DNA of 64,000 nt from an uncultured Chloroflexia bacterium (GTDB taxonomy: Bacteria > Chloroflexota > Anaerolineae > CG2-30-64-16). A model generated the notes under the pieces. The model searched no databases. It had not been told where the DNA came from and was given only the letters and a program-made list of their open reading frames with translations. Of the stretch, positions 9,303 through 62,135 are shown in pieces; position 1 is the stretch's first letter, and every line of letters starts with the position of its first letter. The stretch spans positions 594,559-658,558 of the forward strand of contig CAWEMM010000007.1 of the NCBI GenBank assembly GCA_963810095.1, read 5' to 3'. The translations under genes were made by a program, and so were the position numbers.

Positions 9303-9356
9303 GTCGGTTCTCCTTCCCGGATGTGTGGGTGGGTGATTACCGGACGGGCCGGTGGA

Positions 9357-9581: not shown

Positions 9582-9597
9582 TGCGGGGGGCTGCCGC

Positions 9598-9858: not shown

Positions 9859-9953
9859 GCTCCGGCTCCTTAAACGCGGCGCGGGGCAGCCAGGATCGGC
9901 CGCTTACCCGCGCCAAACCCGCCCTTATCATCGCGCTCTCTGCAACGGAGCTA

Positions 9954-9971
9954 AAGGCCCATTTTGGTGTA
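9954..9971. promoter_or_regulatory. Candidate 18-bp operator
   Basis: aaggccc-attt-tggtgta upstream of the 9858 gene. Confidence 0.4.
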
Positions 9972-9990
9972 ATTGGATGTAGTGTGGAGG

Positions 9991-27036: not shown

Positions 27037-27319
27037 GCTGCCTTCATCCAAGCAAACAGTATCGTATTCCTTGTCAGCCGGCCCACCGCACGGGGCCATA
27101 AGTTACATTGTATGGCGATCGTGCAGCGATTGATAGACCCTAAAAAGGGGCTAATAGGGAGCAAGGAATGAGCCCCGGCCCGCCACACCGTCCATGTGAG
27201 ACAGGCCCATCCTCAGCGTTGTTCTTCGTGCGCCTTGCCCTGCCGCCCGAGAAGCGTGATATAATGGCGTTCTGTTGCGAGTCCAGCCTCCGCGCACTCA
27301 CTGGAGCAGCCCGATCGCC

Positions 27320-43676: not shown

Positions 43677-44351
43677 CTACGCTCGGAGCTGCTCGGCGAG
43701 AAACGCCAGCGTCCGCTCCCATGCCAACTGGGCCGCCTGCGGATTGTACGCTTCCGGGCGGTCCGTCTCAAAGAACCAGTGGGTGGTGCCCTCGTAGATA
43801 AAGAAGCTTGCCGGCCGGCCCACTGCCTTCAACGCGGCCTGCAATTCCTCCATCCCCTCTCGCGGCTCGTAAGGGTCGTTCTCGGCGAAATGGCCGAGGA
43901 AGGCGGCCGTTGCCGGGGTGAGGTCGGGCGCGTATGCGCCGTAGAAGAGGACGACCGCGCCCACATTCGCCGGTCGCATCGCCGCCAGCACCGAGGCCCA
44001 CGCGGCGCCGAACGAGAAGCCGATCACGCCGATGCGTTGGCTGCGTGACCGGCGCACCAGGAAGTCGACCGCCTCGCCGGCTGCCGCCTGGATATGCTCC
44101 GACCACTCGGCCTCGACGGTCTGGACCAGCTCCTGCGCCTCCTCGACGGTCTTTGCGATGCGGCCCTTGAAGAGATCGGGCGCAAACGCGGTATACCCGG
44201 CCTGCGCCAGCCGGTCGCACACCGCCTTGAACGTGTCGTTCAGCCCCCACCACGCGTGCAGCACCAGTACGCCCGGCCCGCCAGCGGCCGGCGCCGAAAG
44301 GTATCCTTCGTACGCCTGCTTTTCGCCATATCGCGTCATTTCACCAGACAT
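43677..44351 (-). CDS. Dienelactone hydrolase family protein
   Basis: HAWWGLN, APDLF, GFSFGA, FYG, HWF. Confidence 0.92.
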   Translation of the reverse strand: MSGEMTRYGEKQAYEGYLSAPAAGGPGVLVLHAWWGLNDTFKAVCDRLAQAGYTAFAPDLFKGRIAKTVEEAQELVQTVEAEWSEHIQAAAGEAVDFLVRRSRSQRIGVIGFSFGAAWASVLAAMRPANVGAVVLFYGAYAPDLTPATAAFLGHFAENDPYEPREGMEELQAALKAVGRPASFFIYEGTTHWFFETDRPEAYNPQAAQLAWERTLAFLAEQLRA

Positions 44352-44360
44352 GTTCGCCTC

Positions 44361-44893
44361 TCATTCGGATCGGAACTCGCGAAATTCGCCGGTTTCCTCC
44401 ATGTACGCCCAGCCGTCCATGCCGGGTGGCCGGATGCCCAACTGCGTGATGATCGCTGAGACTTGTTCCCGGTGCTCGGTCGCGTGGTTGATTGCCTGCA
44501 TGAGCAGACTGCCGAGTGGATACTCGACGGAAAGCCCTTGCTCCGGGTCGGTTTCTCGCACAAGGCTATCGGCCCTCGCGCCCATGGCCAGCCGAGCCAG
44601 CTCATCGCCCGATTCGCGCGCGTCCGAGCGCAACACCTGGAACCCGGGGAATGCGTCGCCCGACAGCCAAGCGGGCGGCATCTTTCTCGTGACCCGGCTG
44701 GCAGTAGTCCACCTGCGCCCCGACGAGATGCGCCAGGGTCGCGCGGATTGAGCCGTGCGCGCCCACAGCGGTTGCCCTCAACTGCTCGTCGGTCAAGTTC
44801 GCGGCAGAAATCAAGCAGCCTGAGGTTGGCCCACGTATTATGGCGGAACATGGTCGTCAAAACGCTCGAATCACCCTGTCCGTTTACCGACAT
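44361..44893 (-). CDS. DinB family protein (frameshifted)
   Basis: FRHNTWAN..L, GSIRATLAH, QAINHATEHREQ. Confidence 0.82.
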
Positions 44894-45212
44894 CCCCTAT
44901 CTCCCTCTCCAAGCCCAACCTACTTCATTGACTACAAGAGCGCCAGCCATGTTATCACGGCCGGTCGGATGCGCAAGCAATCATGGTCACCGTTTCACGT
45001 TTGAGATTAAGCCTTCACCGCACGCTGCCGGACAACGAGGGACCAAATAGCACACTGATCGAACGGACCGGACTGACGATCACGATCTTTATCAAAGGAG
45101 AGTGGGGACCTGGATCGCTGTACCCTGTGCTCGCCTGGTCGCAGGAAACAGACCCGCGTTATCTGCGCCACCCCCGCCTGCACCCCGCTCCATCCAAGCG
45201 ACCAATCGCCCA

Positions 45213-45301
45213 GCTGGCATCGACCGGCCGGCGCGGGCAAGGGTGATGGCCGCAGCCAGTCCATTTGGGCCCGCGCCGACGATCACCGCGTCGTAGCTCA
45301 C
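45213..45301 (-). pseudogene. 5' fragment of a phytoene-dehydrogenase-like FAD oxidoreductase
   Basis: VSYDAVIVGAGPNGLAAAITLARAG overlaps the upstream stop codon, then similarity ends. Confidence 0.7.
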
Positions 45302-46080
45302 TTCCGCAACACCTGCCTGGCCAACTGTCCGGGCAGATGCAGCATCGTGCGGATGGCGGCGTTGTGCCAGATGTTCCGTGCCTGCCCCCACTGCATCTTC
45401 GGGTCCACCAGCTCCCTGCGCTGAGTAACCACCGGCTCGTGAACGTTAAAGTGGCCGGCGAGGTTGGCCAGGGTGCCATGCCAGAAAGCGTCCTCGTTCG
45501 GATGCCCGAGCCCCAGCCGGAACATTAGCTCGAAGATCGGGTCGCTAGTCCGGATTAACGCCTGCACCTGCGCCATCACGCCCTCGTCTTCATCCGCCGC
45601 GCTGAATGTGATCATGCCGGCGAACATGTGGCCTTGAGGCGTCATGAACGAGAATGACTCGTCGTCCGCGTAGATGACCATGATCCCGGTGGAGATCAAC
45701 GGGCCGCCGCCCGGTGCAGACCTGCCGCCCGGCCCAGCCAAATTCAGCACCGCCACCTGCCCCGGTGCGATCCCTGATGCTTCGCCGTAGAAATTATTGC
45801 CTGCCGGCCAAAACTTCGAAAAGTTGTCCTTCCAGGCCCGGATCACCTGCTCCGGCGAGATGTCCGCGCCGTCCAGACGCACGCGATATGTCTTCTGCCA
45901 CATCTGGCCGAAGCCCAACAGCGGCCCGGCCAGGTGGCGTCCTTCGACGTTCAGGTTCAGGGCCCCGATTGGCATGGTGGGCGCCTTGAGCGCGTCCACG
46001 GAGGGCGCCCAGTTCGCCGTGTCACGGCGGGAAGTCTGGCTCGTCGGCTGGTCAGCCCCTTGGGCGGTTGGCTCGATCAT
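45298..46080 (-). CDS. Conserved hypothetical protein coupled to the STAS genes
   Basis: 260 aa intact ORF; GFGQMWQKTY, FMTPQGHMFAG; starts 3 bp after the STAS stop. Confidence 0.8.
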   Translation of the reverse strand: MIEPTAQGADQPTSQTSRRDTANWAPSVDALKAPTMPIGALNLNVEGRHLAGPLLGFGQMWQKTYRVRLDGADISPEQVIRAWKDNFSKFWPAGNNFYGEASGIAPGQVAVLNLAGPGGRSAPGGGPLISTGIMVIYADDESFSFMTPQGHMFAGMITFSAADEDEGVMAQVQALIRTSDPIFELMFRLGLGHPNEDAFWHGTLANLAGHFNVHEPVVTQRRELVDPKMQWGQARNIWHNAAIRTMLHLPGQLARQVLRK

Positions 46081-46083
46081 AGG

Positions 46084-46485
46084 TTACTCCTTGTGCTGGT
46101 GGCGACCGCCATCGGCCGGCGCCACGCTGCGGTTCTCCGCCTCGGCAAGCGCGCCGGTCTCGTCTCCACAAATACGAATCGCCTTGTCGAGCTGGGTCAG
46201 TTCGAAGATCTGCTTGTAGTGCTCGCTCAATCCGAAGGCGACCAGCCCTTGCTTCTGGCGCTGGGTGCGAATCAACAGCGTCACAAGGAGACCGATGCCT
46301 GAGCTGTTCATGTACTCCAGACCGCTGAAGTTCAGGATGATCGCGTGAGCGCCGGCCGCGGTGGCCCGCGTGTAGGCGTCCATCAGGACGCTTTCGGCCG
46401 GACCGGTGACCTCTCCCCGGATATCCAGGATGCTGATTCCAGGGTTGATCGTTCGAATCGTAATCTCGAGTTTTGCGGGAGCCAT
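46084..46485 (-). CDS. STAS anti-sigma factor antagonist
   Basis: ILNFSGLEYMNSSGIGLL, IFELTQL. Confidence 0.92.
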   Translation of the reverse strand: MAPAKLEITIRTINPGISILDIRGEVTGPAESVLMDAYTRATAAGAHAIILNFSGLEYMNSSGIGLLVTLLIRTQRQKQGLVAFGLSEHYKQIFELTQLDKAIRICGDETGALAEAENRSVAPADGGRHQHKE

Positions 46486-46516
46486 GGTGTCTCCTGTGCT
46501 GGCGTCCGCCAGCGAG

Positions 46517-46867
46517 CTATCTGCTACCAGCGAGCGCGGTCGCCTCATCTTGGAAGACCGTCATGAAGTCGGCCAGCCGGGTAATTTGGAAGATCTCCTG
46601 GTAGTGCGGGCTGAGCCCGTAGACCAGCAGCCGGCGTTTGGCCTTGCGCGCACGGGCCAACAGGCCGACGATCAGCGCAATGCCGGTGCTGTTGATGTAG
46701 TTGACCTCGCCAAAGTTCAACACGATGGTCGAGGGGTTGCGGCTTTCCGCCTCGGTATAGGCGGTGCTCAAGGCTGCCTCCGCCGCCGCGTTGATATCTC
46801 CACGCAAATCAATCATGGCCGCGTCCGGTTGGAACCGGGTCGTGGCCTCAAATCGTATGGCTGGCAT
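46517..46867 (-). CDS. STAS anti-sigma factor antagonist
   Basis: VLNFGEVNYINSTGIALI, IFQITRL. Confidence 0.92.
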   Translation of the reverse strand: MPAIRFEATTRFQPDAAMIDLRGDINAAAEAALSTAYTEAESRNPSTIVLNFGEVNYINSTGIALIVGLLARARKAKRRLLVYGLSPHYQEIFQITRLADFMTVFQDEATALAGSR

Positions 46868-48500
46868 CGCGATCTCCTTTCGCTCCCAGGTTGACTATCA
46901 GGTCGACGGAGTGATGGATGCCGTCGTCGGTCACGCGTACATCGTCCACCATGCTGCGGATGAGGAAGAGGCCCCAGCCGCGCGGCGATTGCAGGCCCGC
47001 CAGCTTCGCGTCCAGATCGGGCGTGTCGATCTCGGGAATGGCCTTACCACCCCCATGGTCGGTGATGCTGGTGATCAACTCGTCGCCGGCGGTCTGCACG
47101 CGGATGGCGACCGGCAGGTTGGGATCGTAGTGATTGCCGTGCTCCATGGCGTTCATCGTCGCCTCGGCCACCGCGGTTTTGAGCCGCTCCAGTCGGTCGG
47201 CGGGCAGGTCCAGCCCCATCACTGCCGCTGCGACCTGTTCCATCGCCTCGCGCTCATTGTCGGGCGCGCTGGGGACGGCGAAGTCGGCCAGGACGACTGT
47301 AGGGCCTCTTGTCGACAGCCTCGGGCGTTTCGAATCATCCAGCGAATCGCCGAGTGGCCCGAGCACCGGTCCGGTCCGCTCCAACGTCACGAAGGTGACG
47401 TCGTCTTCCTGCTCCCAGCCTGGCCCCACAAAGTCGGCCAGGGCGCTGCGCAGGTGCTCGATCACTTCCGCGCCGTTGCCCAGTCCACAAGCCATGCCCC
47501 GCAGGCGTGGGAAGCCGAACATCTCGCCCTGCGGATCGTGTGCCTCAACCAGGCCGTCCGAGTAGATCAGGATGCTCTCACCGATCCCCAACAGCGCCTC
47601 GTGCTCGTCATAAATCATCCCGGGCATCAGGCCCAGCGGCATGCCCGTGGCACGCAACTCGACGACGGCATCCCGGGTGCACCTGGCGGGCAGATTGTGC
47701 CCGGCGTTGGCGAAGACGAAGCACCCGGTATGCGGGTTGAGCACCCCATACAGGCAGGTCACGAACATGCCGGGCGGGATGTCGGGGCAGAGCAGTTCGT
47801 TGACGTGCGCCAACACCTTGCCGGGCGACGCGGGATCCTGTTCGGCCGCCACACGTAAGATGCCGCGCGCCGTCGCCATGACCAACGCTGCCGGCATGCC
47901 CTTGCCGGTCACGTCGGCCTCCACGATGCCCAGGTTGCCGTCGGGCAGGTTGATGAAGTCATAGAAATCGCCGCTGACGGCCTGGGCCGGCTGCCAGTAC
48001 GCGGCCAGGTTCCAGCCTGGCAACTGTGGCAGTTCCTGCGGCAGCAAGGTCTGCTGGACAACGCGAGCGACCCGCAGCTCCTGTTCCAGCCGCTCACGGG
48101 CCTGCGTCTCGATGTGCTGCTGGCGGACGAGTTGCGCCACGCGCACGGCCGGCGCGGCCTGGGCCGCCAGGTCGCCTAGCAGCCGGCGGTCGTCGGCCGA
48201 GTAGTCCTGTTCGCTGCGCCGCGGGCCCAGGTTCAGCAGACCGATCAATTCGCCCTGGCCGGCCAGCGGCGCGACAGTTTAACCCCCGCTTCGCGCAGTG
48301 AACGCAGCGCCGGCGAATCCAGCTTCAGTCGCTCCAGGTCTACCACTCCGCCCGCGCTTAGCAGATACGCGCTCAGCGGGTCATTCGGCGCGAAGTCCAG
48401 CGGCAGGATCTGGGCCGCGACGGGAGCCGGCCACTGCCTGGGTCTGCATAGGCACGGTCACGATTGAATCCCCGCTGGGTCTGCGAAATGGGTTATGCAT
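46848..48500 (-). CDS. Partial GAF + SpoIIE/RsbU PP2C phosphatase + RsbW-like kinase fusion (frameshifts ~48420, ~48275)
   Basis: NDPLSAYLL..DSPAL..PL..QGELIGLLNLGPR (GAF C-half); EQEL.VAR..Q.LLP, SGDFYD, DVTGKG, NAGH, YSDGL, EDDVT; EATMNAMEHGN, DHGGG, RGWGLFLI. Confidence 0.88.
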
Positions 48501-48528
48501 ATCTGCTCCGTTTCATCTTGACGCAGTC

Positions 48529-48573
48529 AGTGTACCCGGCCACCGTCCTGAGATCGTTACGGCAAGCGTCACG
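48529..48573 (-). promoter_or_regulatory. Motif-class promoter 1 (-10 TACACT)
   Basis: + strand agtgta(48529-34), 20 bp, cgttacg(48555), cgtcacg(48567). Confidence 0.7.
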
Positions 48574-48619
48574 AACAGCCAATCTGCCTGAGCCAGAGTC
48601 GATTTCTACCGATTGACCA

Positions 48620-50154
48620 TCAGTAGCGTGTATCTTTCTTGAGCCACACACTCACGCTCTCCGGCGCCACCGTCTCCTGCACCACGCGCGCCAGCTCCGC
48701 CGTCAGGCGTTCCAGGTCGGTCTCGTCGCGGGCGGTGAGAGCGAACCGGGCCAGCACCTGCTGGGCATCGTACTTCTTGCGGAAGAAGCGCCGGTCGATG
48801 AAATCCTGGATGCGGCGGCGCAGCGGCGTGAACAAGACTACGATGGCCAGTGTCGAGACGGCTACCGCCAGCGGCGACTGCTCGACTCCGGTCAATGCGG
48901 CGACCAGCCGCTGCAGCAGCACCACCCCGCCCAAGTAGACCAGGGCCAAGAGCGCGGTCAGCGCGCCATACACCAGCGTCTTGCGGATGATGAGGTCGAT
49001 GTCGTACAACCGATAGCGCAGGATAGCAATAGCAATGGCCATGGGGAAGGTCAGGATCGAGACGACAAACAGCAGATCCAGCCAGCCGCTTGCTGAGCCC
49101 CATTGGCCAGCAGTCGAGAGAAAGTAGTTCAGGGCGTAACTGACGGCGAACACAGCCGCGGCATAGAGCAGCCACTTGATCTGTTGGCGTTCGCCGACCG
49201 AGGCGCGACGATAACGCAAGAACAGAGATGCGAGGCTGGCGAACACCAACGTTATCAGCCCGATGCCCCAGACAATCAGGATCGGACCCAGCCACACTCG
49301 ATCCGGAATGAAACCAATCGGATTCGGAAGCCTCCAGTTGGCATTGAGGGGGCCCATTGTGTCCAGGAAGGAGCCAAAACCGATGAAGAACAACCACATG
49401 CCCAAGGCAAGCCAGTTCACCCAGTGCCAGCGGGTAGAAGGCGGGCGACCGCCAGGAAAATGGAGCGGGATCAGGAAGATGGGAAAGATAACCGGTATCC
49501 ACGACCAGCCATCGAACCAGAGAAGCAGCCAGAGGCCGGTCGTGAGCGCACTCGGGGTAGCGGGCAGTCGTCCCAGGATTGTCACGACAGGATTGACGGT
49601 CGCCGAGCGCGATGACATCATAGCCAGCCGACCCGGTTGGAGGGCTGGCGCACGATGATCAGGGCGGCCAACGAAGAGAACACCACGGGAATCATTAGTC
49701 CCCACCCCAGTGCTTCGACCCAGTCGAAGAGCGAGATGGGGGATTGCTGTTTGGCAACCAAAACGCCAATTGAGCCAGGGCGCCCAGCGTGCAGAGCCGG
49801 TAGGCCTTGGAAAAGGCGTGCCAGACGGGTATGGTTCTGCCATTCCCAAACCGACCATCATCGCCGAAACAATCAGCGCACCGCATCGTTTTTTCGCAAG
49901 AAGATCACCAGCCCAATGGCACCCCAGGCGAGCGTGTTTGGCCACTGCAACAAGTAGTTGAACATCGCGTAGAGGTTGACGCTCACGCCCATTGCTTCCA
50001 AACCCTGAACCGTGCCTGCTGGCGGAACAATGCCTTGCATCTGGCGAAATGCTGCTATCTGGCTAACGACCCAAAGACCGGTAAGTGCCGTGGCAAACAC
50101 GACCCACGCTACCTGGGCGTAGGTGAGGCGGCGGCCCGATAGTCCCTCGCTCAT
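48620..50154 (-). CDS. Multipass membrane sensor-like protein 1 ending in a GAF N-terminal fragment (frameshifted)
   Basis: [68 protein letters not shown] then stop. Confidence 0.85.
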
Positions 50155-50182
50155 ACTTTCCGTTGCTCCCTGTGTGCCTTTC

Positions 50183-50238
50183 ACCATACCAACAGCCCGT
50201 ACCCTAATCGTTACGGACACCCGGGGGGATGCCGTCAC
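50183..50238 (-). promoter_or_regulatory. Motif-class promoter 2 (-10 TATGGT)
   Basis: accata(50183-88), 20 bp, cgttacg(50209), cgtcac(50233). Confidence 0.7.
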
Positions 50239-51703
50239 TATCGCGTCTCCACTACTCGCTCCTCTCCCACTCGGCCGGCGCCGCGGCCAAGCGCGCGCCA
50301 CTCGTGCGCCATCGGCGTGACGCCCAGGTCCGCCACGAGGCGGCGGGCGGCCAGTCCCAGGATCGCCGTGAACGTTGGATACGCGATCTGCAGCTCGGCG
50401 AGTTGCTCGACCCACATGTCGGCCGCGATAGCAGCGGCAGCCACGTGCACGACCTCGAGCGCCTGCTCGCCGACCACGTGCGCGGCCACCAGCCGGTGCG
50501 TCTCCCGGTCGGCGATCAGCTTGCAGAAGCCCTCGGTGCGGCCGTCGATTACTGCTCGGTCCAAGTCTGCGTAGGGCACGACCGCGACGGCGATGTCGCG
50601 CTCTTTGCGCGCCTGCTCCTCCGCCGGCCCGACGCTGGCGTACTCTGGGTGCGTGAACCCGCCGTGCGGCACGATCTGGTGCTCCTTGCGCCCGTTACCG
50701 CCCAGCAGTGCGTTCTCGGCCGCGATGCGCGCCTCGTAGCCGGCGCTCTGCACCAGCATCATGCGCCCATCGATGTCGCCGGCCGCATAGATGTGCGGCA
50801 CCGAGGTGCGACAGGTGGCTGTCGGTGATGACGTAGCGGCCATCCGTCTCGACGCCGGCCGCAGCGAGGTTCAGCCCGTCCAGGTTGCCCAACCAGCCGG
50901 TAGACATAATCACCGCTTCGACAAGTAACGTCTGAATATGCGTCGCCCAACTGGTAGGCCAGCGCCAGCTCATTCCCCTGTCGCTCGAGGCGCGTCACGC
51001 CGCCGATGCCGGTGATGATGTCGACGCCCACGGCGCCCATACGCCTCGGTCATGCGTTTCCGAAACGAGCCGGTCCTCGATGGTCAGGATGCGCGGGGCC
51101 ACGTCCAGTACGGTCACCCGGCTGCCGAACGCGCTGAAGATCGTGGCCAGTTGGCAGCCAGTGGCTGCGCCACCCACGATCGCGACCGAACGCGGCAACG
51201 CCTGCAGGCGCCAGATGTCACTGTGGGTCAGCGCCAACTCCGCGCCGGGGAAATCGAGCCGGCGCGCCGCGGCCGCCCGCGGCCAGGACGAACTTCTCGC
51301 CTACGAACTGCCGGCCATCGGGCACAGCAACGGTGTGCGGGTCCAGAAACCGCGCCACGCCCACCCCGACATGGACCTCGACGCCCGAGGCCTCCAGGTG
51401 CGCCAGATGTTGCTTCTTCTCGTGCATCTCGTAGATGATGGCCTGGGTGCGCGCCAGCAAGCGCCGAAAGTCGAGCTCCGGTCGTGCGAGGGTCAATGCC
51501 ATAGGCCTCATATTGGCCGGCGTTATCCATCAGGCGTGCAGCCCGACGCCAGCGACCCGCGTCGGCACGCAGCCGTCATTGGTGCACGTGCCGCCCAGGC
51601 TGTCGTCGCGCTCGATGAGCGCCACTGACGCGCCCAGCTCGCGGCCGCGCAGCGCAGCGGTCACGCCAGCCGGTCCCCCACCGATCACGATCAGGTCGTA
51701 CAT
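50238..51703 (-). CDS. Flavoprotein disulfide reductase (lipoamide DH/MerA/SthA class I; multiple frameshifts)
   Basis: YDLIVIGGGPAG, GGTCTNDGCVP, IVGGAATG, IYAAGD, FTHPE.ASVG, AYPT. Confidence 0.88.
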
Positions 51704-51708
51704 GTGGG

Positions 51709-53065
51709 TTACACTGCCTCCAGTGCGCTGGCCGTCTCGACCCGCCCGACTTCGCCGTCCACCGCGACGTGGTAGGTCCGTAAGCGCGCTTGGCAGGGCC
51801 AAGCAGCACCTCGCCGGTGGTCACGTCAAAGCAAGACGCATGCCAGGGACAGACGATGATCGTTTCGTCGAGCTTGCCCTGGCTCAGCGGCCCGCCGGTG
51901 TGGGTGCACTCATCCTGCGTCGCGTAGAACTGCCCTGCGACGTTATAGACCGCCACGTTCATGCCGTCCACTGTCACCCGCGTAACCTGTCCCGGCTGCA
52001 GGTCGGCAACCCGAAAATGATTGGATCCGCCGGCAGCCGGTTGACCGGACGGTTCCGAACATACCATGCAAGCGAGATATCCGGCTCATCGCGTTTGTAG
52101 ACCGGGATCCGTACGGTCACGCGGCCATCGCGCACAGTCACCGGGTACTTGGGCAGGACTGCGGTCCGGTCCAGCAGCAGCTGCCCGGTGGCGAGGGCGT
52201 ACTGATACCCGTGCCACGGGCAGGTCAGCGTGCCATTGGTCAGATCACCCGCGCACACCGGTCCGCCGCGGTGCAGGCAGCTGTTCTGCAGCGCGACCCA
52301 TTCCCCGTCCTGATGGAAGACGCCGACAGATAAGCCCTCGGCATCGATGATCTTGCGCTGCCCTTCGGGGATCTCGTCGACCGTCCCGACCAGCACCTCG
52401 CGATACTCGATCGTGCGCGCGATGCCAAGCGCCTTCTCATAGGTCTCCACAGCCAGATCGCGCACCGGCTCCTCGTCCATCTCCTCGCGCGCCTGAAAGG
52501 TTTCCGGCTCGCGGCCCTCGCCATACGGCCTCGCCAGTTGCTCGAGCAGGACCATGAGCAGGGCCTGCCACGCGGTCCGGGCCCGTGCCTCCAGGTCAGG
52601 GTCTATTTCCCGCAGCTCCGCCGCCAGGGCTTCCGTCACCCGCTGTCCCACGAACCCCACCATGCCAAGCACGTAGCGCTCGGGAATATAGACCGTGGGA
52701 TCGGCGCCCAGCGAGGTGTGCGCTCGGCCGACGTAGTCCACAAAGCGCGCGTAGTCCTCGTCGAAGACGCCGGCCGCAGTGCGGCGCCAGAAGCCGGCCT
52801 GGTGCTGCATGCGCAGCGCCAGGTAGGCCTGGTCAAGCGTTCCGTCCGGTTTCAGGAAGTGTTTGCGCGTGGCCGGGAAACTCAGCACCTGGGCGTAGAA
52901 CTCGCCGACGATCGCGGGGATGTGCTTCTCGATCACGAAGCGCGTCTCCCGGATAGCTTCCGCATGCTCAGCGCTGAACCCGACAAAGTCGGACATGAAA
53001 GCAAAATAGCGGCCCGCGTCGGGCGCGCCGCGCTTGAATCGTTCTTGCGTTGACAACTCACTCAT
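51709..53065 (-). CDS. Protoglobin-domain protein fused to two Rieske [2Fe-2S] domains (frameshifts ~52065, ~51785)
   Basis: FMSDFVGF, IVGEFY, YVGRAH, IPERY (protoglobin/sensor-globin pattern); CLH..CPWHG and CTH..CPWHA Rieske ligand sets. Confidence 0.8.
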
Positions 53066-53132
53066 TATTCCAGAACCCTCATCCATCGGCTCGCGCAGTA
53101 CAAAGCGTTACTTCACACTCTATTCGTTTGTC

Positions 53133-53178
53133 ATCCTACCAGTCCACCGTCCGCCAATCGTTACGGATGCGAGTGACG
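53133..53178 (-). promoter_or_regulatory. Motif-class promoter 3 (-10 TAGGAT)
   Basis: atccta(53133-38), 20 bp, cgttacg(53159). Confidence 0.7.
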
Positions 53179-53179
53179 T

Positions 53180-54303
53180 CTATATCGCAGCCACGCGCTC
53201 ACTGTCTCCCGCTGCTGCGTCTACCTGCCACGACGCGCTGCACTCCAAGTCGTCGCAGGCCGTCAGCGACCGCTGAACCAGAGACACGAAGAAGCCGGTC
53301 CAGCGCTCGTCAAAGCTGCCACGAAAACACTCAGTCGCGACGTAGACACACATCGCCACGCACAACCTGTAGTCATAGAGCAGTTGCTCCCAGGTGTATC
53401 CACAGCACGCCACATCTCTCCAGGCAGGCGAGGTAGTGTTCGAGAATGGGCATCCCCCATTCCCTGTGCGCCTCGATCTCCCAGTCCAGCACGAGGGCAT
53501 GGGCCAGGTCATAGACGCCCAGCCACGTGGTCATTGCCCAGTCAAAGGGTTGGCGGTCAATCACGTAGATGGGGCGATCGCCCAGGCGCGGCACGAGTAT
53601 GTTCTTTGCGCCGGGATCGCCATGAATGAGCGTGAATCCGTTCGGGTTCATCGTCCGTTCCACCATAGCCCGCGAATGGTTCGCGAACAGCTCGCGCAGG
53701 GAGTCCGGCCAGTGTGGCTTCAGCTCGGATGAGAATCGCCCTAGGAGGTGATCCACCCCCGCTTCGGCCACTGTGACGAAGTCCCGGATTTGACTGGCGC
53801 TGTGCATGGGCGCCCCTGCTTCCATGAGCCGCTGTCCGCCCCACCAACGGGCATGTAGAACGGCGAAGCCCTCTGCGAGCGCGAACCCATAGTCAAGCGT
53901 CGGCGCTTTTTCGGACGCGGTGACATGTGTCTCCGACACGTCGTCCAGGAGGAGGTGGTATCGCCCGAGCACGTCCGAGTACTGCGCGTCGTAGCAATGC
54001 AGCAGCGGGGCGCCTTCCACATCCACGTAATCCCGCCGGTAGTACGTGACTTCCGAGTCGTCGAACGACTCGTCACCAGGGTGGGTATTGACCATCTTCA
54101 AGAACAGGCATCGCGGCAGCGACCCTTGCGCCCCATCCGTGTAATTCACGAGCCAGCCTGGCGTTGGTGGACCAGTTCCCCTGCCCTGACTCCAGCTCGA
54201 AGGACGCGACCGCACCGTGCGTCAATGCGCCGCGGGCCGCGAGGACCGAGGTCAACCACCCGGTTGTCACCTGCTCAATGTTGGTGATCACGTTATCTGC
54301 CAT
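53180..54303 (-). CDS. APH/EcKinase-like phosphotransferase (frameshifts ~54165, ~53405)
   Basis: LFLK, E..YY, LLLDD, HARWW, TLIHGD...N, YDLA. Confidence 0.82.
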
Positions 54304-55438
54304 GCGGGCTTTTCGTTTCTCGCAGCCACACACTCACGCCCTCCGGTTGCAGCGTCGCCTGCACGACGCCCGTCAACTCCGCCGTCAGCGCGTCCAGGTC
54401 GGTTTCATCGCGTGCCGTTAGGGCAAACTGAGCCAGAACCTGTTGCGCGTCGTATTCTTCCGGTAGAAGCGACGGTCGATGAAATCCTGGGTGCGCCGGC
54501 GCAGCGGCGTGAACAAGACACGATGGCCAGCGTCGAGACGGCCACCGCCAACGGAGACTGCTCGACGCCTGTGAGCGCCCCGACCAGCCGCTGGAGCGAG
54601 CACGACGCCCCCGAAGTAGACCAGCGCCAGCAGCACCGTGAGAATCGAATAGACCAAGGTGCGGCGGATGATGACGTCGATGTCCCACAGGCGATAACGC
54701 ATGATCGAGATCACGATGGATCCTGGGAATACGATGAGGAAGGCGGTCCACAGAAAGAAACCCAGTTGCTCGCTAGCTGTACTCGCGCTAAAGAAATTCG
54801 TTCCCGCAAACAAGACGAGAGCGATCCCTAATGGCGGTAAGATCACGGCAAGCCCGAAGACGACCCACTTGATCTGCTGGCGCTGGATCGCATCAGAGAC
54901 ACGGAGGTAACGGTAGATTTGGGCAAGCGCTGCTGTGATCATCAACAGCCCCATCATGGGGAAGGCCTTCTGCATGTACGCGTCCGGGAAGAAAATCCGC
55001 CAAAGCTGAATTCCAGACACAACAAGGGCAGCCACGCGCGTCCAGCGCGGCACGAAGCGCCCGTCCGGAAAGATATAGAACAGGCAGATCAGAAGCGTGC
55101 TCGAGAGTGCGGCAAACACGAGATCAAGGCGCACGGCGAATGGCTCGCTCCCAAAGACCAACTCGAACTTGTCGGTTGAGAGGGATACGATGAGCACAAG
55201 CGAAAAGATAAAGGCGACCAGGTCGTCGGAACGCCGCCAGAAGATAAGAATGCCGAGGACCAGGTAGACCGCCTGAAGCACGATCTCAAGCCAGACTTTT
55301 GGGTCTTGCGACGCGCTTCCCACGGTCTGGGGCAAGGCAAGCAAGTCGAGGATCACAAATACGACGGCGATGACCGTCCACAACGCGCGCATCAGTACCA
55401 GTTGCCGGCCGGTCAGGCGGCTGCTGTTCGCGTGTCAT
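54293..55438 (-). CDS. Multipass membrane sensor-like protein 2 ending in a GAF N-terminal fragment (frameshifted)
   Basis: [59 protein letters not shown]. Confidence 0.82.
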
Positions 55439-56763
55439 GACTTCTGCTCCCGACCGCGCAGCCACACGCTCACGCCTTCCGGCTGCAGCGTCTCGTCCAC
55501 CACCCGCACAAGTTCGCTGGTAAGAGCGTCCAGGTCGGTCTCATCGCGGGCCGTTGACGGCGAACCGGGCCAGCACCTGCTGGGCGTCGTACTTCCTCCG
55601 GTAGAACCGCCGGTCAACAAGCTTCTGGATGCGGCGGCGCAGCGGCGTGAACAAGACGCACGATGGCCAGCGTCGAGACCGCCACCGCCAGCGGCGACTG
55701 CTCGACGCCGGTGAGCGCGGCGACCAGCCGTTGAAGCAGCACGACGCCCCCGAAGTACACCAAAGCCAGGAGCGAAGTCACAACGCTATAGACCAGCGTC
55801 TTGCGGATGATGACATCGATGTCGAAGAGCTTTGAGCGGAGGATTGCCACGCCGATGGACAGGAAAACAACCTGAAACGCCATGGCCGACACGATCAGAA
55901 AGGCAGAACGCCGAAGTAAGTCTCGATCGCTCTGCGTGCCCAGAGTGGCGTCACCGGTGATGCCGATGTAGGCAAAGGTTGTCAAGAGGAATGCTGGTAT
56001 GGCGCCGAGACCGAACAGCACCCACCGCGTTTGCTGGCGCTCTGCCGGGCTGGACACGCGCCGGTAGCGATAGATTTGCGGCCGCCACGCCGCCGAACAT
56101 CACGCTCAAGCCAACCAGTCCATGTCCAGAAGGATCCCAGCGGGTTGCTGCTGCTGCCTCAAGTCCAGCGTCGACTGCAGGAAGTAGCCGATGCCGAAGT
56201 AGGCGACGACGATCCAGTACAGCCGGGGCACCATACGTCCGTTTGGAAAAAGGCCGAAGAACAACGGCAAAGAGACAGTGGAGAGCAGGTCGAGGATCTT
56301 TGCGGGGACCTGAAACGCGGGATATGCCGCTGCCAGTACGCTCACCCCTTCTCCAAGCGTGACCCATGTGATGAAGAAGAATGAGATCAGCAGGGCGATT
56401 GGTTCGCTGCGCCTGCGTGCGAAGATCAGGAACCCGAGCGTGAGGGGAACCAGGGCAAAAACGCCGCGAAGACTGACCCGCAGGAGCGCATACGCGTCCA
56501 AGGAGAGGCCGCGGGCGGCAAGTTGTGCGACCCCGGTGGGCGTGGCAAAGTCGAACTGGGCGCATTGCTCGGCCGTCGCCGTGCATACCTGCCGCAACTG
56601 GCCGTAGTACATAACTGATCCGGCCACGTACATCGAGCAGCGCGGGCACGACGACATCAACCCAGGCGACTTGCGCGAGGTGCATCCAGCGCAACGTCCG
56701 CAAATGGGATTTTGGCGACTCGGTCCCCTGCGATTGGATCGCTTGCGACCCACGGTCTCTCAT
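55435..56763 (-). CDS. Multipass membrane sensor-like protein 3 ending in a GAF N-terminal fragment (frameshifted)
   Basis: VC....QC loop, [51 protein letters not shown]. Confidence 0.82.
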
Positions 56764-56848
56764 CTGATGCTCCCGTCTGCTGCGTTGCAGTGTATTACAT
56801 GTGCACACGCCTGAGTCTGTAGCGCAAGTTGTTTGTGGGCGTCTGCCC

Positions 56849-57330
56849 TTACCGGGTGCCTGCGATCAGCCAGCCCAGTACCGCCCCGTAGATGAGGTGG
56901 GCAAGTGCTAAGTGCACGGTTGGGAATCTCCCGCAGCGCCGCGCCTGCGCCGGTCAAAGCCAGCCCTTGTGCCACAAGCAGCAGCGCGAGCCCATAGGCC
57001 AACCCGATCAAAAGCGCCCCCAACGCGGCCGGTCCAGCGGCCCCGGACGACCAGCCGGTAGAAAATCCCGAACAGAAGCCCATAGACGGCCGAGACCGCC
57101 AGGTGGATCAGCGTGCCCATCACCGGCGAGCCTTGCCCGGCTGGATCAAAACGGGCCAGGATAGAAAGCGGCCCTGCACCCCCGACCAGGCCGGCCACCA
57201 CTAAATAAGCGGCCATCGCACTGCCGGCAGCTGCGCCAGCCAGCAGCCCATCGACTGCCGCATCGCTCGTCGTGTGGCGGCCTTCTGCAACGGTCGCACC
57301 GGTCTGAGCCATCCTTGTGCTCCTTGGCAT
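56849..57330 (-). CDS. Small 4-TM membrane protein with two H-x(3-6)-YG motifs (frameshifted)
   Basis: GLLAGAAAG.AM, LIHLAVSAVYG, LAHLIYGAVLG. Confidence 0.7.
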
Positions 57331-57366
57331 GACGCCCTCCTCGATCTTCTGCACCTGTTGCTCATC

Positions 57367-57411
57367 ATAATAATCCGCCCCCGTAGCCTAATCGTTACGG
57401 TGACCGTCACG
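57367..57411 (-). promoter_or_regulatory. Motif-class promoter 4 (-10 TATTAT), in the divergent region next to the SARP regulator
   Basis: ataata(57367-72), 20 bp, cgttacg(57393), cgtcacg(57405). Confidence 0.72.
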
Positions 57412-57481
57412 GGGCGGCAATTCGTTGCGTTTCCTTGTATCCGGCGGTACAATTTCGTCGGTCAGGCAGGGAGGGAAGCAC

Positions 57482-60432
57482 ATGGCCCTACTCACGATCC
57501 GGCTCTTGGGCGTTCCCCGTATCGTACGCGACGGTGCGCCGGTCGTCGTTGACACGCGTAAGGCGATCGCCCTTTGGCCTACCTCGCACTTACCGGCCGC
57601 GTCCACGCCCGCGAGGCGTTGGCTGCGCTACTCTGGCCCGAATACGACGACGAGCACGCGCGGGCGGCTCTGCGCCGGACGCTGTCCACGCTCCGTGCAG
57701 CGCTAAGCGAGCCCTATCTGGCTGTCGAACGCGAATCGATAGGCCTGATCTCCGGGGCAGGCGTCTGGGTAGATGTGGCGGCGTTCAACGAGCGGCTGGC
57801 CGCCTGCCGGACCCATGGCCATCCCGCGGCCGATGTCTGCCCCTTATGCCTATCGCCCCTGGCAGAAGCGGCGGAGCTCTACGAAGATGACTTCATGGCC
57901 GGCTTCACCTTGCGCGATAGTGTCAACTTCGACGATTGGCAGCTCGTCTCAGGTCGAGAGCCTGCGCAGTGCCTTGGCTGAGGTATTGGAGAAGCTCGCG
58001 TGCGGCTATGGCGCCCAGGGTGACTTTGCCGCCGCGTTGGCATCGGCCCGGCGGTGGTTAGCAATGGACCCCTTGCGCGAGGAGGCGCACCGCCAGGTGA
58101 TGCGACTTTACGCGTGGTCCGGCCAGCGCAACGCCGCCATCCACCAGTACCGTGAGTGCGTCGGCATCCTGGAGCAGGAGCTGGGCGTGACGCCGCTGGC
58201 GGAGACCACCGAGCTGTACGAGGCGATCAAGGGCAACACGCTGCCTGAACAGGTAGACCTAAGAAGTCGCCCCAAGCCCGTAGGCTCTCCAGCGTCATCT
58301 GCCGTGGATCTGCCAGGACTCGCAGAAGGGTCCGCCCGTTCGCTCCCTCTGGTCGGCCGGGCCGCCGACCTGGCGGGCCTGATCCATTCATACGAACAGC
58401 ACGGGGCCGGCGGCTACTTCGTGGCGATAGAGGGTGAGGCCGGCATCGGCAAGACGCGGCTCGCCGAGGAGTTCCTGGCCCATGCGCGCGCCGAGGGCGC
58501 GACGACGATCACCGTGCGCTGCTTCGAGGGGGAAGCGGCGGTGGCGTACGGGCCGATCGCCGATGGATTACGCGCGGCCTTACGTGAACGTCGTGTGCGG
58601 AACGAACAGCAGCCATCCCGGCCCATTGGCTGAGCGAAGCCGCTCGCCTGCTGCCCGAGTTGCTCGCCTCCCATCCCGAACTCCCGTCGCCCCTGCCAGT
58701 CGACGCCCTGGGCGGACAAAGCCGCTTCTTCGAGGCGTTGCGCCAGGTGCTGATGAGCTTCTGTCGCGGACCGGTGCCCAACGTGCTCTTCTTCGATGAC
58801 ATCCACTGGGCGGACTCGGCCTCGCTCGACCTGCTGGCCTACCTGGTGCGGCGGCTACACGGTCAGCCGCTCTTTCTGCTCGCGACCTGGCAGGGCGAGG
58901 ATCCGACTCATCGCCAGCGATTGGCCCACCTGGTCGTCGACGCCCAGCGCGGTCATACCGGCATGGCCATGCGCCTGGCTCGGCTCAAGCCGGCCGATGT
59001 GCTCGATCTACTCCGCGCGGCCGGAGACGCGGTCACATCGCTGCCCGTCAGAGATCGGCAGCCGGCTGTATCACGAGACGGAGGGACTGCCGTTGTTCCT
59101 GGTCGCCTACCTCGAAGCACTGGCGCAGGGCAATAGAGCAGGCGAGGGCGGGGCGGAGTGGCCGGTGCCACCTGGGGTAATTGACCTCTTGCGGGCTCGG
59201 CTGGATACAGTGGGGGACGCCGCACGGCAGGCCCTGCAGGCAGCGTCTGTGATAGGTCGTTCCTTCGACCTGGAGGCGCTGCACAGCGATCAGCGGTCGT
59301 AGCGACGAGGAGATCGTGTTGGCACTGGAAGCCCTGACCAGCCACGGGATCTTGCGGGAGATTGCGGAAGGCACGGGCGCGGCTCCATCGTATAACTTCA
59401 CCCACGAGAAGCTGCAAGGCCTGGTCTACGATGAGACGGGCCTGGCCCGGCGCCGGCTGCTGCACGGCCGCGCGGCTAGGTTCTTATCGGAGCGAGCCCG
59501 ACTCCGCCGAGATCTGGCAGCCCACGCGGCGCAGATCGGCCGTCACTTCCGGCTGGCTGGACAGGATGCCGACGCAGCATCCCATTTCGCCCTGGCTGGC
59601 GACCACGCCCGCAGCCTCTATGCCAACGCCGAGGCGTTGGCGCAGTTCCAGGCCGCGTTAGCCTTGGGCCATCCCGAGACTTGCCGCTTGCACGAGGCTA
59701 TCGGCGACATGCACACGCTTCTGGCAGCCTACACCGCGTCGCTGGCCAGTTACGAGGTGGCGGCGGCGTTGTGCGAGCCAGGCAGTCCAGCGCTGGCCGA
59801 GATCGAGCACAAGCTCGGGAACGTGCATGCCCGCCGCGGGGAATGGCTTTCTGCTGAGGCGCACTTCTCGGCCGCGTCGGACATACTCGGCCGCCCGGAG
59901 TTCCCCGCGGCGGTAGGTCGGATCTTGGCCGACTGGAGCCTCGGCGTCCATGCGCAGGGGCAGCCGGAGCGGGCACTCAGTCTGGCCCGGCGATGCGCTA
60001 TTCTTGACGGAGTCGGCGTCTGACCAGCCCGGTATGGCCCAGGCACACAACATCCTCGGCATCCTGGCGCGCAGCCGTGGGGACGCCGCCGGCGCTGCAG
60101 CGCACCTCGAACAGAGCCTGGCCATCGCTGAGGCACTGCCTGACCCTAGCAGTCGCGTCGCAGCGCTCAACAACCTGGCCCTCGCCCGCGCGGACAGCGG
60201 CGACCTGGTGGGGGCCACGGCCCTGGCCGAGCAAGCGTTGGCGCTGGGAGTTGCCGTGGGCGACCGGCATCGGGAGGCCGCACTGCGCAATAATCTGGCG
60301 GACCTGCTGCATGCAGCCGGCCGCCGCGAAGAGGCGATGGCTCAGCTCAAGCAGAGTGTGGTGATTTTCGCTGAGATCGGGCTGGCGGCCGGCGACACTC
60401 AGCCGGAGATCTGGAAACTGACAGAGTGGTAG
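57482..60432 (+). CDS. SARP/AfsR-like regulator: wHTH-BTAD-AAA ATPase-TPR (multiple frameshifts)
   Basis: IRLLG.P, R..LAALLWP, AALRRTL, MDPLREEAHR.VM, LGVTPL.ET, GEAGIGKTRL, DDIHWAD, TEGLPLF, TPR-like repeats, PEIWKLTEW end. Confidence 0.9.
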
Positions 60433-60465
60433 GGAGGTGGCGGTTTGGATCACCTACTCTTCCAC

Positions 60466-62135
60466 TCAGCTGGACTGCGCCAGATACTGGTGAACGAACT
60501 GGACGGCCATACCCCCCTCACCCACCGCGGCAGCCACTCGTTTGACCGAACCACGGCGTACGTCGCCGGCAGCGAATACGCCGGGTATGCTGGTCTCCAG
60601 CAAGAGCGGGGGCCGTTGCAGCGATGGCAGCCGATTTATGGGCCTGACGTCGATCAGATCCTGTCCCGTGAGAAGGAAGCCGCGCGGGTCGCGCAGGATG
60701 CCGGTGGGCAACCAGGCCGTGCGAGGCTGCGCGCCTATCAGGACGAACAAGGCCGCTGTTGGGATGGTCTGAGTTGTCTCTGCAGAGCCGTCCTGGATAA
60801 CCAGGCTCTCGAGCCGGTAGGTGCCGTGCCCGTCGATGATCTTGGTGTGCAGACGTACGTCAATGTTGGCCGTGGCTGCAATCTCCTTTACCAGATAGTC
60901 CGACATACTGGCGGCCAGCGAGCCACCCCTTGCCAGGATCGTGACCTGTCGCGCGTACTTCGCCAGATGGACGGCCGCCTGCCCCGCGGAGTTGCCAGCG
61001 CCGGCAACGAAGACGTGCTGTCCTTCCATTGCCTGGGCCTCGGTGATCCCACCGCCATAGAAGACCCCCGCACCCACCAGCCCTTCGAGGCTGGGAATCC
61101 CGAGGCGCTGGTAGCTGGCGCCCATCGCCAAGATGATCGTCCGGCTGACGATTTCCGTCCCATTCGCGAACACGAGGACACGGTCGCGGCCTTCCGCTCG
61201 CAGATCGATGGCCTCGCGCAGCACCGACGTTTCCGCCCCAAACGACCATGCCTGGTCGAGCGCCCGGTTGGTGAGATCTGCTCCGCTGATGCCGAGCGGG
61301 AACCCCAAGTAGTTTCGAATGAGCGAGCTGGTGCCCGCTTGCCCACCGATTGAGTCCCGATCGACTACGATGGTGCGCAAGCCCTCTGACGCGCCGTAGA
61401 CTGCCGCCGAGAGGCCAGCAGGCCCGGCGCCGACAATAGCCAGGTCGAAGCGGCCTTTATCGTCGCTATGACGCACGCCCAGCGCCAGCGCCACCTCCTC
61501 ATTCGGGGCGCGGTCAGGACCAGCCCATCAAACCGGATCAGCACGGGAAATGGGCCAGCGGGCCGGCCGAACCGCTGCAGCAGCGCGAGGCCGTCCTCGG
61601 AATCGGTCTCATAGGACTTGAACGGCAGACCACCGCGGGCCAGCAGATCGCGAATCTCGGCGGCACGTGCGCTCCAACGCTCGGCCACGATGGTGACAAT
61701 CTCACGCGTTGCCTGTTGTCGACGCTGCCAGTCATGAAGCACCCCGGTAATGAGCGCATGAAACGCTTCGTCGGGAGCATGATTGGGCTTGACGACGTAG
61801 CGGTCAAATTGCCCAACCGCAACGGCTTTGAGGAGCGGCTTTGACTCGGAACGATTGCCCCAAGGGACGAGCACGACACGTGTCGCATGGGGATAGAGTT
61901 CATGTGCGCGCGCGAAGTACTCGATGCACGGCATCGAGCTCAACTCGAGCGCCGCCAGCAGGATGACGACTTGCGCACCCGCCGCCCGCAACTGCCCCAA
62001 CCGTTCCAGCGACGCCTGTGCTGTTTCATCGCAGAAAACTTCGTAATCGTCCGCGTAGCGCTTGAGCAGCTCGCGCTGGAGTATCTCCCTATCCCGAACC
62101 TGATCCTCGACCGCCATCAAAACCGGTTTAGCCAT
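60466..62135 (-). CDS. Receiver-domain / thioredoxin-reductase-like FAD oxidoreductase fusion (frameshift ~61510)
   Basis: [11 protein letters not shown] receiver; [52 protein letters not shown]. Confidence 0.88.

Follow-up and report, generated by a model that had tools for sequence, protein, structure and literature searches.

Four promoters of one gene cluster in an uncultured Chloroflexota bacterium carry the operator geometry of a SARP-type regulon

Why should four promoters of a single gene cluster in an uncultured Chloroflexota bacterium carry the same short block at the position where a -35 hexamer would be expected? The cluster lies in a stretch of 64,000 nucleotides with a G+C content of 65% (the window; contig CAWEMM010000007.1, positions 594,559 to 658,558 of the forward strand), where the 10-mer ATCGTTACGG is found on the plus strand at 48553, 50207, 53157 and 57391, and where a gene divergent from the last of these sites encodes a large regulator of the SARP type (Streptomyces antibiotic regulatory protein). 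We conclude that the four sites are probably activator-dependent promoters of the housekeeping polymerase, that their GTAACG repeats are probably bound by the cluster's own SARP, and that four transcription units would be switched on together. What was observed, as described below, is the motif with its geometry, its retention in front of orthologous genes, and the regulator's homology and predicted fold; the conclusion was drawn from these.

Motif abundance in the window was compared with expectation and with 100 dinucleotide-preserving shuffles. Four copies of ATCGTTACGG are present against 0.08 expected, and none of the 100 shuffles reached four. The inner 7-mer CGTTACG is by itself unremarkable (seven copies vs 4.98 expected; seven or more in 21 of the 100 shuffles), and its three remaining copies (15148, 25599 and 42671) are without the promoter architecture. 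On the minus strand, which is the gene strand here, all four copies read CCGTAACGAT-N6-ACGG-N8-TAnnnT. A search with the 20-nt pattern CCGTAACGAT-N6-ACGG, allowing up to three mismatches, returned eight matches in the window: four exact, none with one or two mismatches, and four with three mismatches, the latter at chance level (4.99 expected). The motif is therefore not common at random positions, since the shuffles never reproduced it fourfold and no other window copy has fewer than three mismatches. All four sites have the same orientation, and the start codon of a minus-strand gene follows each at a distance of 28-67 nt; each would head a transcription unit, as the original prediction had it.

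The spacing proposed for these sites at the outset was likewise confirmed. At all four, CGTTACG stands 20 bp from a minus-strand TAnnnT hexamer (TACACT, TATGGT, TAGGAT and TATTAT) and a second CGT, in the form CCGT, lies 11 bp nearer the -10; CGTCAC follows at +12 (sites 1 and 4) or at +24 (site 2). The anatomy of the element was then determined over 12 sites (the four of the window and eight from other Chloroflexota loci), with -10 hexamers assigned from the sequence only. The repeat unit is GTAACG in direct repeat. Its central copy (R2) is perfect at 12 of 12 sites, a downstream copy 11 bp away (R3) retains ACG at all 12, and an upstream copy 12 bp away (R1) matches in at least four of six positions at nine of 12, with neighbouring offsets giving a mean of only 0.3-2.4 of six matches to GTAACG. 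Exactly 8 bp separate the R3 heptamer, which ends in ACG(G/A/C), from TAnnnT at 11 of the 12 sites, the exception being L004 with TACAAG. The 11-bp-phased pair of CGT triplets described originally was thus right in its phase and incomplete in its extent, the unit being GTAACG in usually three repeats spaced 12 + 11 bp.

In the orientation of the genes (minus strand), P1 (48529-48572) has R1 GTGACG at 48567-48572, R2 GTAACG at 48555-48560, R3 AGGACGG at 48543-48549 and, after the 8-bp gap, a -10 TACACT at 48529-48534. In P2 (50183-50238), R2 at 50209-50214 is followed by R3 GGTACGG (50197-50203) and the -10 TATGGT (50183-50188); R1 is missing at -12, and a GTGACG is found at -24 (50233-50238), where it overlaps the stop codon of the reductase gene. 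P3 (53133-53164) has R2 at 53159-53164, R3 CGGACGG at 53147-53153 and the -10 TAGGAT at 53133-53138, with R1 absent. P4 (57367-57410), the promoter divergent from the regulator gene, has R1 GTGACG at 57405-57410, R2 at 57393-57398, R3 GCTACGG at 57381-57387 and the -10 TATTAT at 57367-57372. A sigma-70 consensus scan of 45000-58000 called two sites, none of them at the four promoters, and detected no -35 hexamer there; ordinary sigma-70 promoters were rejected on this result. An RNA element was also considered and rejected, as no Rfam family reached its gathering score in 44000-61000 and the motif sits upstream of the -10.

This arrangement agrees with the published description of SARP target promoters. 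In the part of PMC10936776 that deals with promoter architecture, such promoters are said to contain direct repeats 11 or 22 bp apart, of which the 3' one is separated from the -10 by 8 bp; the afs box (-40 to -19) is described as two 11-bp repeats over a poor -35, and two SARP protomers as lying side by side and holding sigma region 4. The corresponding part of PMC11301090 restates the 8-bp rule and gives the -35/-10 distance at afsS as 20 bp, and three heptamers in direct repeat, overlapping the -35, are described for some SARP sites in a portion of PMC10972967. The operators in question fit the rule as worded in those parts (PMC10936776, PMC11301090) in their 11-bp phase, their 8-bp offset, their overlap with the -35 position and the 20 bp from R2 to the -10. 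SARPs are also said, in the same portion of PMC10972967, to be exclusive to actinobacteria and to control secondary metabolism. The present system does not correspond to this description, which is a statement on distribution and holds no molecular criterion: the 18 orthologous loci described below and the nearest relatives of the cluster proteins are from Chloroflexota metagenome-assembled genomes (MAGs). No biosynthetic core genes were found among the cluster open reading frames (ORFs) examined by Pfam in the window and in relatives.

Orthologous loci were collected by a profile search of genome contigs, using an alignment of the cluster's protoglobin-Rieske protein as the query and taking 10-kb flanks. 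Eighteen of these (L001-L018; 292,409 bp), all from Chloroflexota MAGs, are true orthologous loci, and the other 62 (L019-L080; 1,044,096 bp), which have only a Rieske domain in common, were used as background. A regular expression for the architecture returned seven sites in the orthologous loci and none in the background, and a 46-nt weight matrix added an eighth (L004:2148). All 12 sites scored at least 36 bits with this matrix, everything else in the window or in the orthologous loci scored below 14, and the background maximum was 19.8. In a leave-one-genome-out analysis, a genome's own sites scored 19.1-46.5 bits, against 3.6-12.1 for the strongest competing position of that locus and a maximum of 18.2-20.4 in the background. 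With a matrix made from the eight foreign-genome sites only, the window sites were the top four positions on both strands (P1 40.1, P4 30.0, P2 21.9 and P3 19.1 bits; next-best position 12.1); the scores of P2 and P3, which are without R1, are close to the background maximum of 20.3 and would alone not be significant in a large genome.

The eight foreign sites are located in six of the 18 orthologous loci, upstream of the same gene families as in the window. A site precedes the GAF-PP2C operon in L004, L005 and L008. L005 has a second site before the membrane protein and sensors, divergent from the regulator, and the site of L012 stands before the protoglobin operon, also divergent from the regulator. 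L003 has sites before the reductase gene and before the EcKL-like kinase gene, and in L002 the site is followed by a cytochrome P450 gene and then a sensor gene. The intergenic region divergent from the regulator gene accordingly holds a site in the window, L005 and L012. Motif conservation in orthologous loci, which had been suggested as a check, was thus found (eight sites in six of 18 loci vs none in 1.04 Mb of unrelated loci), at promoters whose genes encode orthologues just 40-60% identical in protein. A tblastn search of the window and all 80 loci with the SARP domain gave matches only in the window, L002, L003, L004, L005 and L012, and the full-length regulator as the query added an NOD-TPR match in L008. 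Six of the seven motif-bearing sequences therefore have a SARP-like match vs none of the 12 motif-free orthologous loci (Fisher p = 2.6e-4, a statistic that ignores phylogeny).

The regulator gene (57482-60432, plus strand, ATG at 57482) is divergent from P4 and encodes a large SARP-type protein with the order winged helix-turn-helix, BTAD, AAA_16/NOD and TPR. By tblastn with the regulators of L004, L005 and L012, the window gene is collinear over its full length with orthologues of 961-1006 aa. BTAD was detected by Pfam in a window fragment (E 1e-18) and over the full profile in the three orthologues (E 4e-21 to 6e-24), AAA_16 and several TPR families were detected on the same orthologues and on window fragments, and the family consensus contains a GxxGxGKT-type P-loop. 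The L005 regulator matches AfsR (8jke, 8k60 and 8hvr) in a single stretch, residues 7-304 against 28-306, at an E-value of about 1e-9, with EmbR as the second-best sequence match (phmmer, E 3e-8). A model of its residues 1-300, computed from a 34-sequence alignment, reached a predicted local distance difference test score (pLDDT) of 88.7 and a predicted template modelling score (pTM) of 0.83. The model has three strands within residues 4-21, helices at 26-38, 44-51 and 57-74, a hairpin at 80-97 and then a helical domain, and this strand/three-helix/hairpin pattern is that of an OmpR-type winged helix. Foldseek returned AfsR first (8k60 and 8hvr; E 2e-13 to 2e-11, target-normalised TM-score 0.72-0.74) and EmbR next (range for both proteins 2e-13 to 4e-9), followed only by TPR proteins at E-values above 2e-3; its alignments to AfsR and EmbR, like those of phmmer, begin at residue 7. 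The winged helix was found on the L005 orthologue; the window copy aligns to that region, with a frame change at 57574. These results uphold the earlier identification of the divergent gene as a BTAD-AAA-TPR protein of SARP type.

The regulator family comprises 1872 proteins at an E-value ≤ 0.001 among 7999 scored; many carry the JGI label "DNA-binding SARP family transcriptional activator", and source labels include Anaerolineae, Roseiflexaceae, Rubrobacter and Actinomycetota. A candidate promoter of the regulator gene itself was tentatively read from the sequence at 57425-57453 on the plus strand (TTGCGT, 17-bp spacer, TACAAT); it was not called by the consensus scan because its -35 matches only three of six positions, and L003 keeps the arrangement (TTGCGT-17-TATAAT).

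The mechanism that we propose is as follows. Each promoter would offer a TAnnnT -10 without a usable -35 hexamer and, in its place, GTAACG direct repeats. Protomers of the regulator would occupy R2 and R3 as neighbours on the same helical face, and also R1 at sites that have it. By gripping sigma region 4 and the core of the polymerase they would take the place of the -35 contact, as has been solved for AfsR at afsS. The first unit switched on in this way would encode a small membrane protein together with two membrane sensors and an EcKL-like kinase, the second a protoglobin-Rieske-Rieske protein and a flavoprotein reductase, the third a further membrane sensor, and the fourth a GAF-PP2C-kinase protein, a pair of STAS proteins and a protein of START fold. 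In response to a signal, the regulator's activity would be gated by its NOD-TPR part.

Several observations weigh against this mechanism. The binding, the activation and the positions of the start sites (some 7 nt downstream of each -10) are predictions from sequence. Whether the whole cluster is present, and how closely the genomes are related, both confound the co-occurrence of motif and regulator. L003 has two high-scoring sites beside a regulator whose interior is deleted, about 42 residues being left of the N-terminus and 100 of the C-terminus; L008 has a site, yet the DNA for about 11.7 kb upstream and 7.4 kb downstream of it contains no SARP-like gene; and the sole BTAD-like match in L002 is 31% identical, lies at the locus edge and belongs to an nSTAND1-WD40 protein. 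The scans covered the window and the fetched loci, and further sites or a second regulator may lie elsewhere in these genomes. The R1-R2 step of 12 bp is one base above the canonical 11-bp phase (11 or 22 bp), and the Pfam profile Trans_reg_C gave an E-value of 0.02, short of significance, at the N-terminus of one of the three orthologous regulators and no match in the remaining two. The window regulator gene has to be read in frames 2, 1, 2, 1, 2, 3 and 1, i.e., with six frame changes, and most target genes carry one to three; judged by its reading frames, the regulator sequence as written encodes no functional protein. As separate observations, the remnant in L003 (5252-5830, minus strand), which may reflect a deletion or a co-assembly artefact, has an intact promoter and two operators nearby, and the STAND proteins in the neighbourhood of the L008 site are of the cyclase type only. 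The predicted co-activation by the SARP of the sensors, the phosphotransferase, the globin-Rieske/reductase pair and the PP2C-STAS operon, as originally proposed, is supported by the comparative evidence and is burdened by the six frame changes of the window regulator.

These frame changes bear directly on the possibility that the regulon is real as a trait of the family and dead in this genome, its genes being pseudogenes and its four operators undecayed relics, which we regard as doubtful though worth keeping in mind. The cluster has about 14 frame changes in 13.7 kb (46851-60432): six in the regulator gene, two in the reductase gene, one or two in the protoglobin-Rieske gene (1-2-bp indels near 52071, 52042 and 51789), at least one in the PP2C gene (near 48270), one in the gene of sensor B and two in that of sensor C. 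The sensor A gene has a frame change between its ATG at 50154 and the long ORF ending at 48623, and the DUF6789-like gene probably has one near 57049. The breaks are 1-2-bp indels, and a search for homopolymer context found none at them, as decay would have it; an amine-oxidase gene shrunk to about 30 codons and a sensor 3' remnant at 53185-53221 point the same way. The broken genes are, however, collinear with their orthologues from end to end at 40-60% identity, their matches breaking off nowhere but where the frame changes and large deletions being absent; the protoglobin protein has a relative of 94% identity whose sequence is intact (452 aa); and truncated domain matches hint at similar indels in six unrelated window genes (18266, 32288, 34980, 37680, 40908 and 44364), which fits sequencing or assembly error along the contig. 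Assembly error is to our mind a more likely source of the indels than gene decay.

The repeats may instead be bound by another winged-helix protein encoded elsewhere, for example one of the OmpR/PhoB family and of the GlnR/PhoP/AfsQ1 kind, with the SARP gene a bystander or acting elsewhere; we consider this improbable. Regulators of the OmpR/PhoB family likewise bind 11-bp-phased direct repeats as tandem protomers, GTnAC-type half sites at 11-bp spacing are described for the actinobacterial GlnR and AfsQ1, and the L008 site without a SARP gene in reach and the L003 sites beside a deleted regulator are readily accommodated. A survey for competing regulators was made over 55 window ORFs, 41 of the 54 ORFs of L004, L005 and L012, and 40 of 59 further ORFs (19 were dropped as already identified by tblastn or as antisense). 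Neither a sigma factor nor a receiver domain nor any further type of DNA-binding domain was detected by Pfam within the cluster or next to it in the cluster-bearing sequences, and no protein with a receiver domain or Trans_reg_C was found in the seven of them. Moreover, a constant distance of 8 bp to the -10, kept at 11 of 12 sites, is what published work gives as the mark of SARP sites, and the motif occurs in the divergent intergenic region of the SARP gene in three genomes and is confined to the cluster within the DNA examined. The 260-aa protein encoded in the cluster was tried as a hidden DNA-binding regulator; it had no PDB sequence match, either as a single sequence or as a profile, and was rejected because its predicted fold is START/Bet v 1.

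It is very unlikely that the conserved block is the -35 region of an alternative sigma factor, perhaps as the output of PP2C/kinase/STAS partner switching and with no activator involved. RsbU/RsbW/RsbV-like modules control a sigma factor in other bacteria, the cluster encodes such a module (SpoIIE, HATPase_c_2 and two STAS proteins), and R2 is invariant as a -35 element might be. The downstream hexamers, however, fit the housekeeping TAnnnT, the distance of 20 bp from R2 to the -10 is longer than a -35/-10 spacer normally is, further copies of the element stand in direct phase at +11 and -12, unlike in a sigma -35 element, and no sigma-factor gene was found in the window or in the cluster-bearing loci. 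Finally, that the four copies arose by chance or are remnants of a duplicated segment or small mobile repeat can for practical purposes be dismissed, even though sensors A, B and C are paralogous and promoters could have travelled with gene copies, since the shuffles never give four copies, two of the sites head non-paralogous genes, the motif is retained at orthologous promoters of such divergent proteins, and the four sites share nothing beyond it, with flanks unrelated and repeat families D7, D9 and D18 spanning the motif only.

The genes under the four predicted operators were mapped by Pfam and by tblastn with intact orthologues, and all of them are on the minus strand. Downstream of P4 lies first a DUF6789-like small membrane protein (56760-57330), located with the L005 protein by tblastn, whose L005 and L002 orthologues carry the Pfam domain DUF6789; it is followed by membrane sensor paralogues C (55441-56753, in three frames) and B (54296-55461, in two frames) and by an EcKL-like phosphotransferase (53376-54215). 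The latter is assigned through weak matches of its orthologues to the ecdysteroid-kinase-like family (L003 E 3e-4, L002 E 7e-7); the window ORF had no Pfam match, and no PDB sequence match was found for this kinase. The P3 unit comprises the protoglobin-Rieske-Rieske gene (51736-53065; about 450 aa in relatives) and a gene for a flavoprotein of the pyridine nucleotide-disulfide oxidoreductase type (50241-51706, in three frames), whose L012 orthologue has complete Pyr_redox_2 and Pyr_redox_dim domains. Hundreds of relatives of the former, of about 450 aa with Protoglobin and two Rieske domains, were found, and where they are named they are from Anaerolineae or Caldilineales MAGs. Sensor paralogue A (48623-50154) forms the P2 unit. 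The P1 operon begins with a protein consisting of the C-terminal part of a GAF domain, PP2C (SpoIIE) and HATPase_c_2 (46851-48500), continues with two STAS-domain genes (46520-46867 and 46087-46548) and has as its last intact gene that of the 260-aa START-fold protein (45301-46080), which belongs to no Pfam family.

What is left of the amine-oxidase-like flavoprotein gene (45218-45307, minus strand) comes after the START-like gene, as the gene does in L005, L008 and L012; in L004 it is elsewhere in the cluster. The sensor remnant derives from the 3' end of a fourth sensor gene and is flanked by the EcKL-like kinase gene and P3, and the kinase gene of L003 is likewise followed by only a C-terminal sensor fragment. 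A second regulator of the STAND type (27275-30049, plus strand; intact, 925 aa, AAA_16, MalT-like TPR and LuxR-type HTH) is encoded 17 kb from the cluster and is not conserved near it in other genomes. A defence system was considered and rejected: PADLOC gave just a generic TPR match for the regulator and none for five other proteins tried. Leaders of some orthologous transcripts are unusual. In L004 (2174-2189) and L008 (11694-11706) the -10 hexamer is just 6-9 nt before the GAF-PP2C ATG and the transcripts would be leaderless or nearly so, though GGAGG sits between the -10 and the ATG. In L012 (9832-9950) the protoglobin operon has a 5' leader of 118-133 nt with a long and perfect inverted repeat, possibly an attenuator or else a hairpin for processing; in the window this leader is far shorter.

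How might such a set of genes work together? The sensors are nine-helix membrane proteins, with three paralogues in the window and at least six in L005, and longer relatives fuse the membrane module to GAF + SpoIIE, PAS + GAF + SpoIIE, GAF + histidine kinase or GAF + STAND ATPase. Residues 41-451 of one such fusion (P0265, 793 aa) align with the L005 sensor and residues 453-792 with the L005 GAF-PP2C protein from its residue 59 onward, with no overlap, and the conserved sensor tail, about 75 aa long, is therefore equivalent to the beginning of the GAF domain. The sensor tails are encoded at 48623-48850, 54296-54520 and 55441-55660 and the effector N-terminus at 48272-48500 (L005:3583-4857 and L005:15312-16910 for the orthologous pair), and the GAF part of the effector covers only profile positions from about 27-41 to 133. 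A GAF domain split in this manner suggests that many sensors may dock on one effector. The family of the 260-aa protein counts 1304 representatives, of which 11 were examined (three STAS fusions, six reductase-STAS fusions, partly truncated, and two cupredoxin fusions), and its model (pLDDT 92.8) has the START/Bet v 1 (helix-grip) fold. Fusions thus join genes of different transcription units (sensor + GAF + PP2C; reductase + STAS + START-like), which fits joint control. A START-fold protein encoded beside a PP2C is reminiscent of plant PYR/PYL receptors, which are among its fold matches; the resemblance may well be coincidental. L005 also has a single long ORF (6853-9987, plus strand) that combines sensor-like sequence with an inosine-uridine nucleoside hydrolase domain, with relatives P0250, P0276 and P0281.

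A broader and speculative proposal, which we put forward only tentatively, is that the cluster is a self-contained signal-integration island under a SARP/STAND activator, in which interchangeable sensors complete the GAF domain of an effector that works via STAS. The C-terminus of each sensor would supply the first helix and the first strand of a GAF domain, and docking on the soluble effector, the rest of the GAF fused to a PP2C phosphatase and a serine kinase, would complete it. By way of the two STAS proteins, the effector would then reach both the START-fold ligand-binding protein and the protoglobin-Rieske-Rieske/flavoprotein redox chain. If this were true, SARP activation by -35 replacement would be an old Terrabacteria switch for whole sensory modules and no actinobacterial antibiotic speciality.

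Our analysis supports a predicted SARP-type regulon whose kind is known and whose phylum and gene set are new. To our knowledge, almost no transcription factors have been characterised in Chloroflexota. A literature search found no paper on a Chloroflexota SARP regulon, on Chloroflexota protoglobin-Rieske proteins or on the GTAACG repeat, and a preprint with a survey of AfsR-like proteins (10.64898/2026.09.02.748808) covers, in its available part, actinomycetes and does not mention Chloroflexota or other phyla there. The locus thus gives a large SARP in uncultured Chloroflexota a defined candidate operator (GTAACG repeats, 12 + 11 bp, 8 bp from the -10) and a predicted regulon of four transcription units, conserved across genomes and unrelated to antibiotics. 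By analogy, it would be evidence that the -35-replacing mechanism solved for AfsR works outside Actinomycetota. The operator and regulator are a ready, testable pair for Chloroflexota, the signal of the AfsR-like NOD-TPR part could be sought among the co-regulated sensors, the haem-Rieske protein and the START-fold protein, and the weight matrix can be used to annotate this regulon in Chloroflexota metagenomes.

Among known systems, RsbU/RsbV/RsbW resemble the cluster in that PP2C phosphatase, HATPase_c_2 serine kinase and STAS proteins are encoded together. The Chloroflexota phosphatase and kinase differ in being one protein behind a partial GAF domain with no sigma factor nearby, and STAS is elsewhere fused to the START-fold domain and to the flavoprotein reductase. 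GlnR and PhoP of the OmpR/PhoB family are described in the relevant part of PMC11301090 as tandem winged-helix protomers on direct repeats one helical turn apart. They differ in having a receiver domain and in their dependence on a histidine kinase, and no such protein is encoded in the Chloroflexota cluster. We know of no fixed 8-bp offset from the -10 at GlnR/PhoP-type sites. EmbR of Mycobacterium tuberculosis (2fez and 2ff4) shares the winged-helix + BTAD SARP domain; it has an FHA domain in place of NOD-TPR, and its operator architecture is not comparable. Small SARPs (ActII-ORF4 and DnrI) are cluster-encoded activators of several promoters of their own cluster, as the Chloroflexota regulator would be by analogy, and, unlike it, are without NOD and TPR and control antibiotic biosynthetic genes. 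The closest parallel is AfsR at afsS of Streptomyces coelicolor (8hvr, 8jke and 8k60), which among solved structures is the best sequence and fold match to the Chloroflexota regulator and has the same order of winged helix, BTAD, NOD ATPase and TPR (about 980-1006 aa here vs 993). The parallel extends, on the promoter descriptions given in parts of PMC10936776 and PMC11301090, to 11-bp-phased direct repeats over the -35 position, a downstream repeat 8 bp from the -10, a poor or absent -35 and about 20 bp from the upstream repeat to the -10. It differs in the Chloroflexota host, a SARP-domain identity of about 26%, the repeat GTAACG and a usual third repeat at 12 bp, and in that the regulator would have at least four target promoters, all in its own cluster and heading signalling and redox genes, with no antibiotic-synthesis regulator among them.

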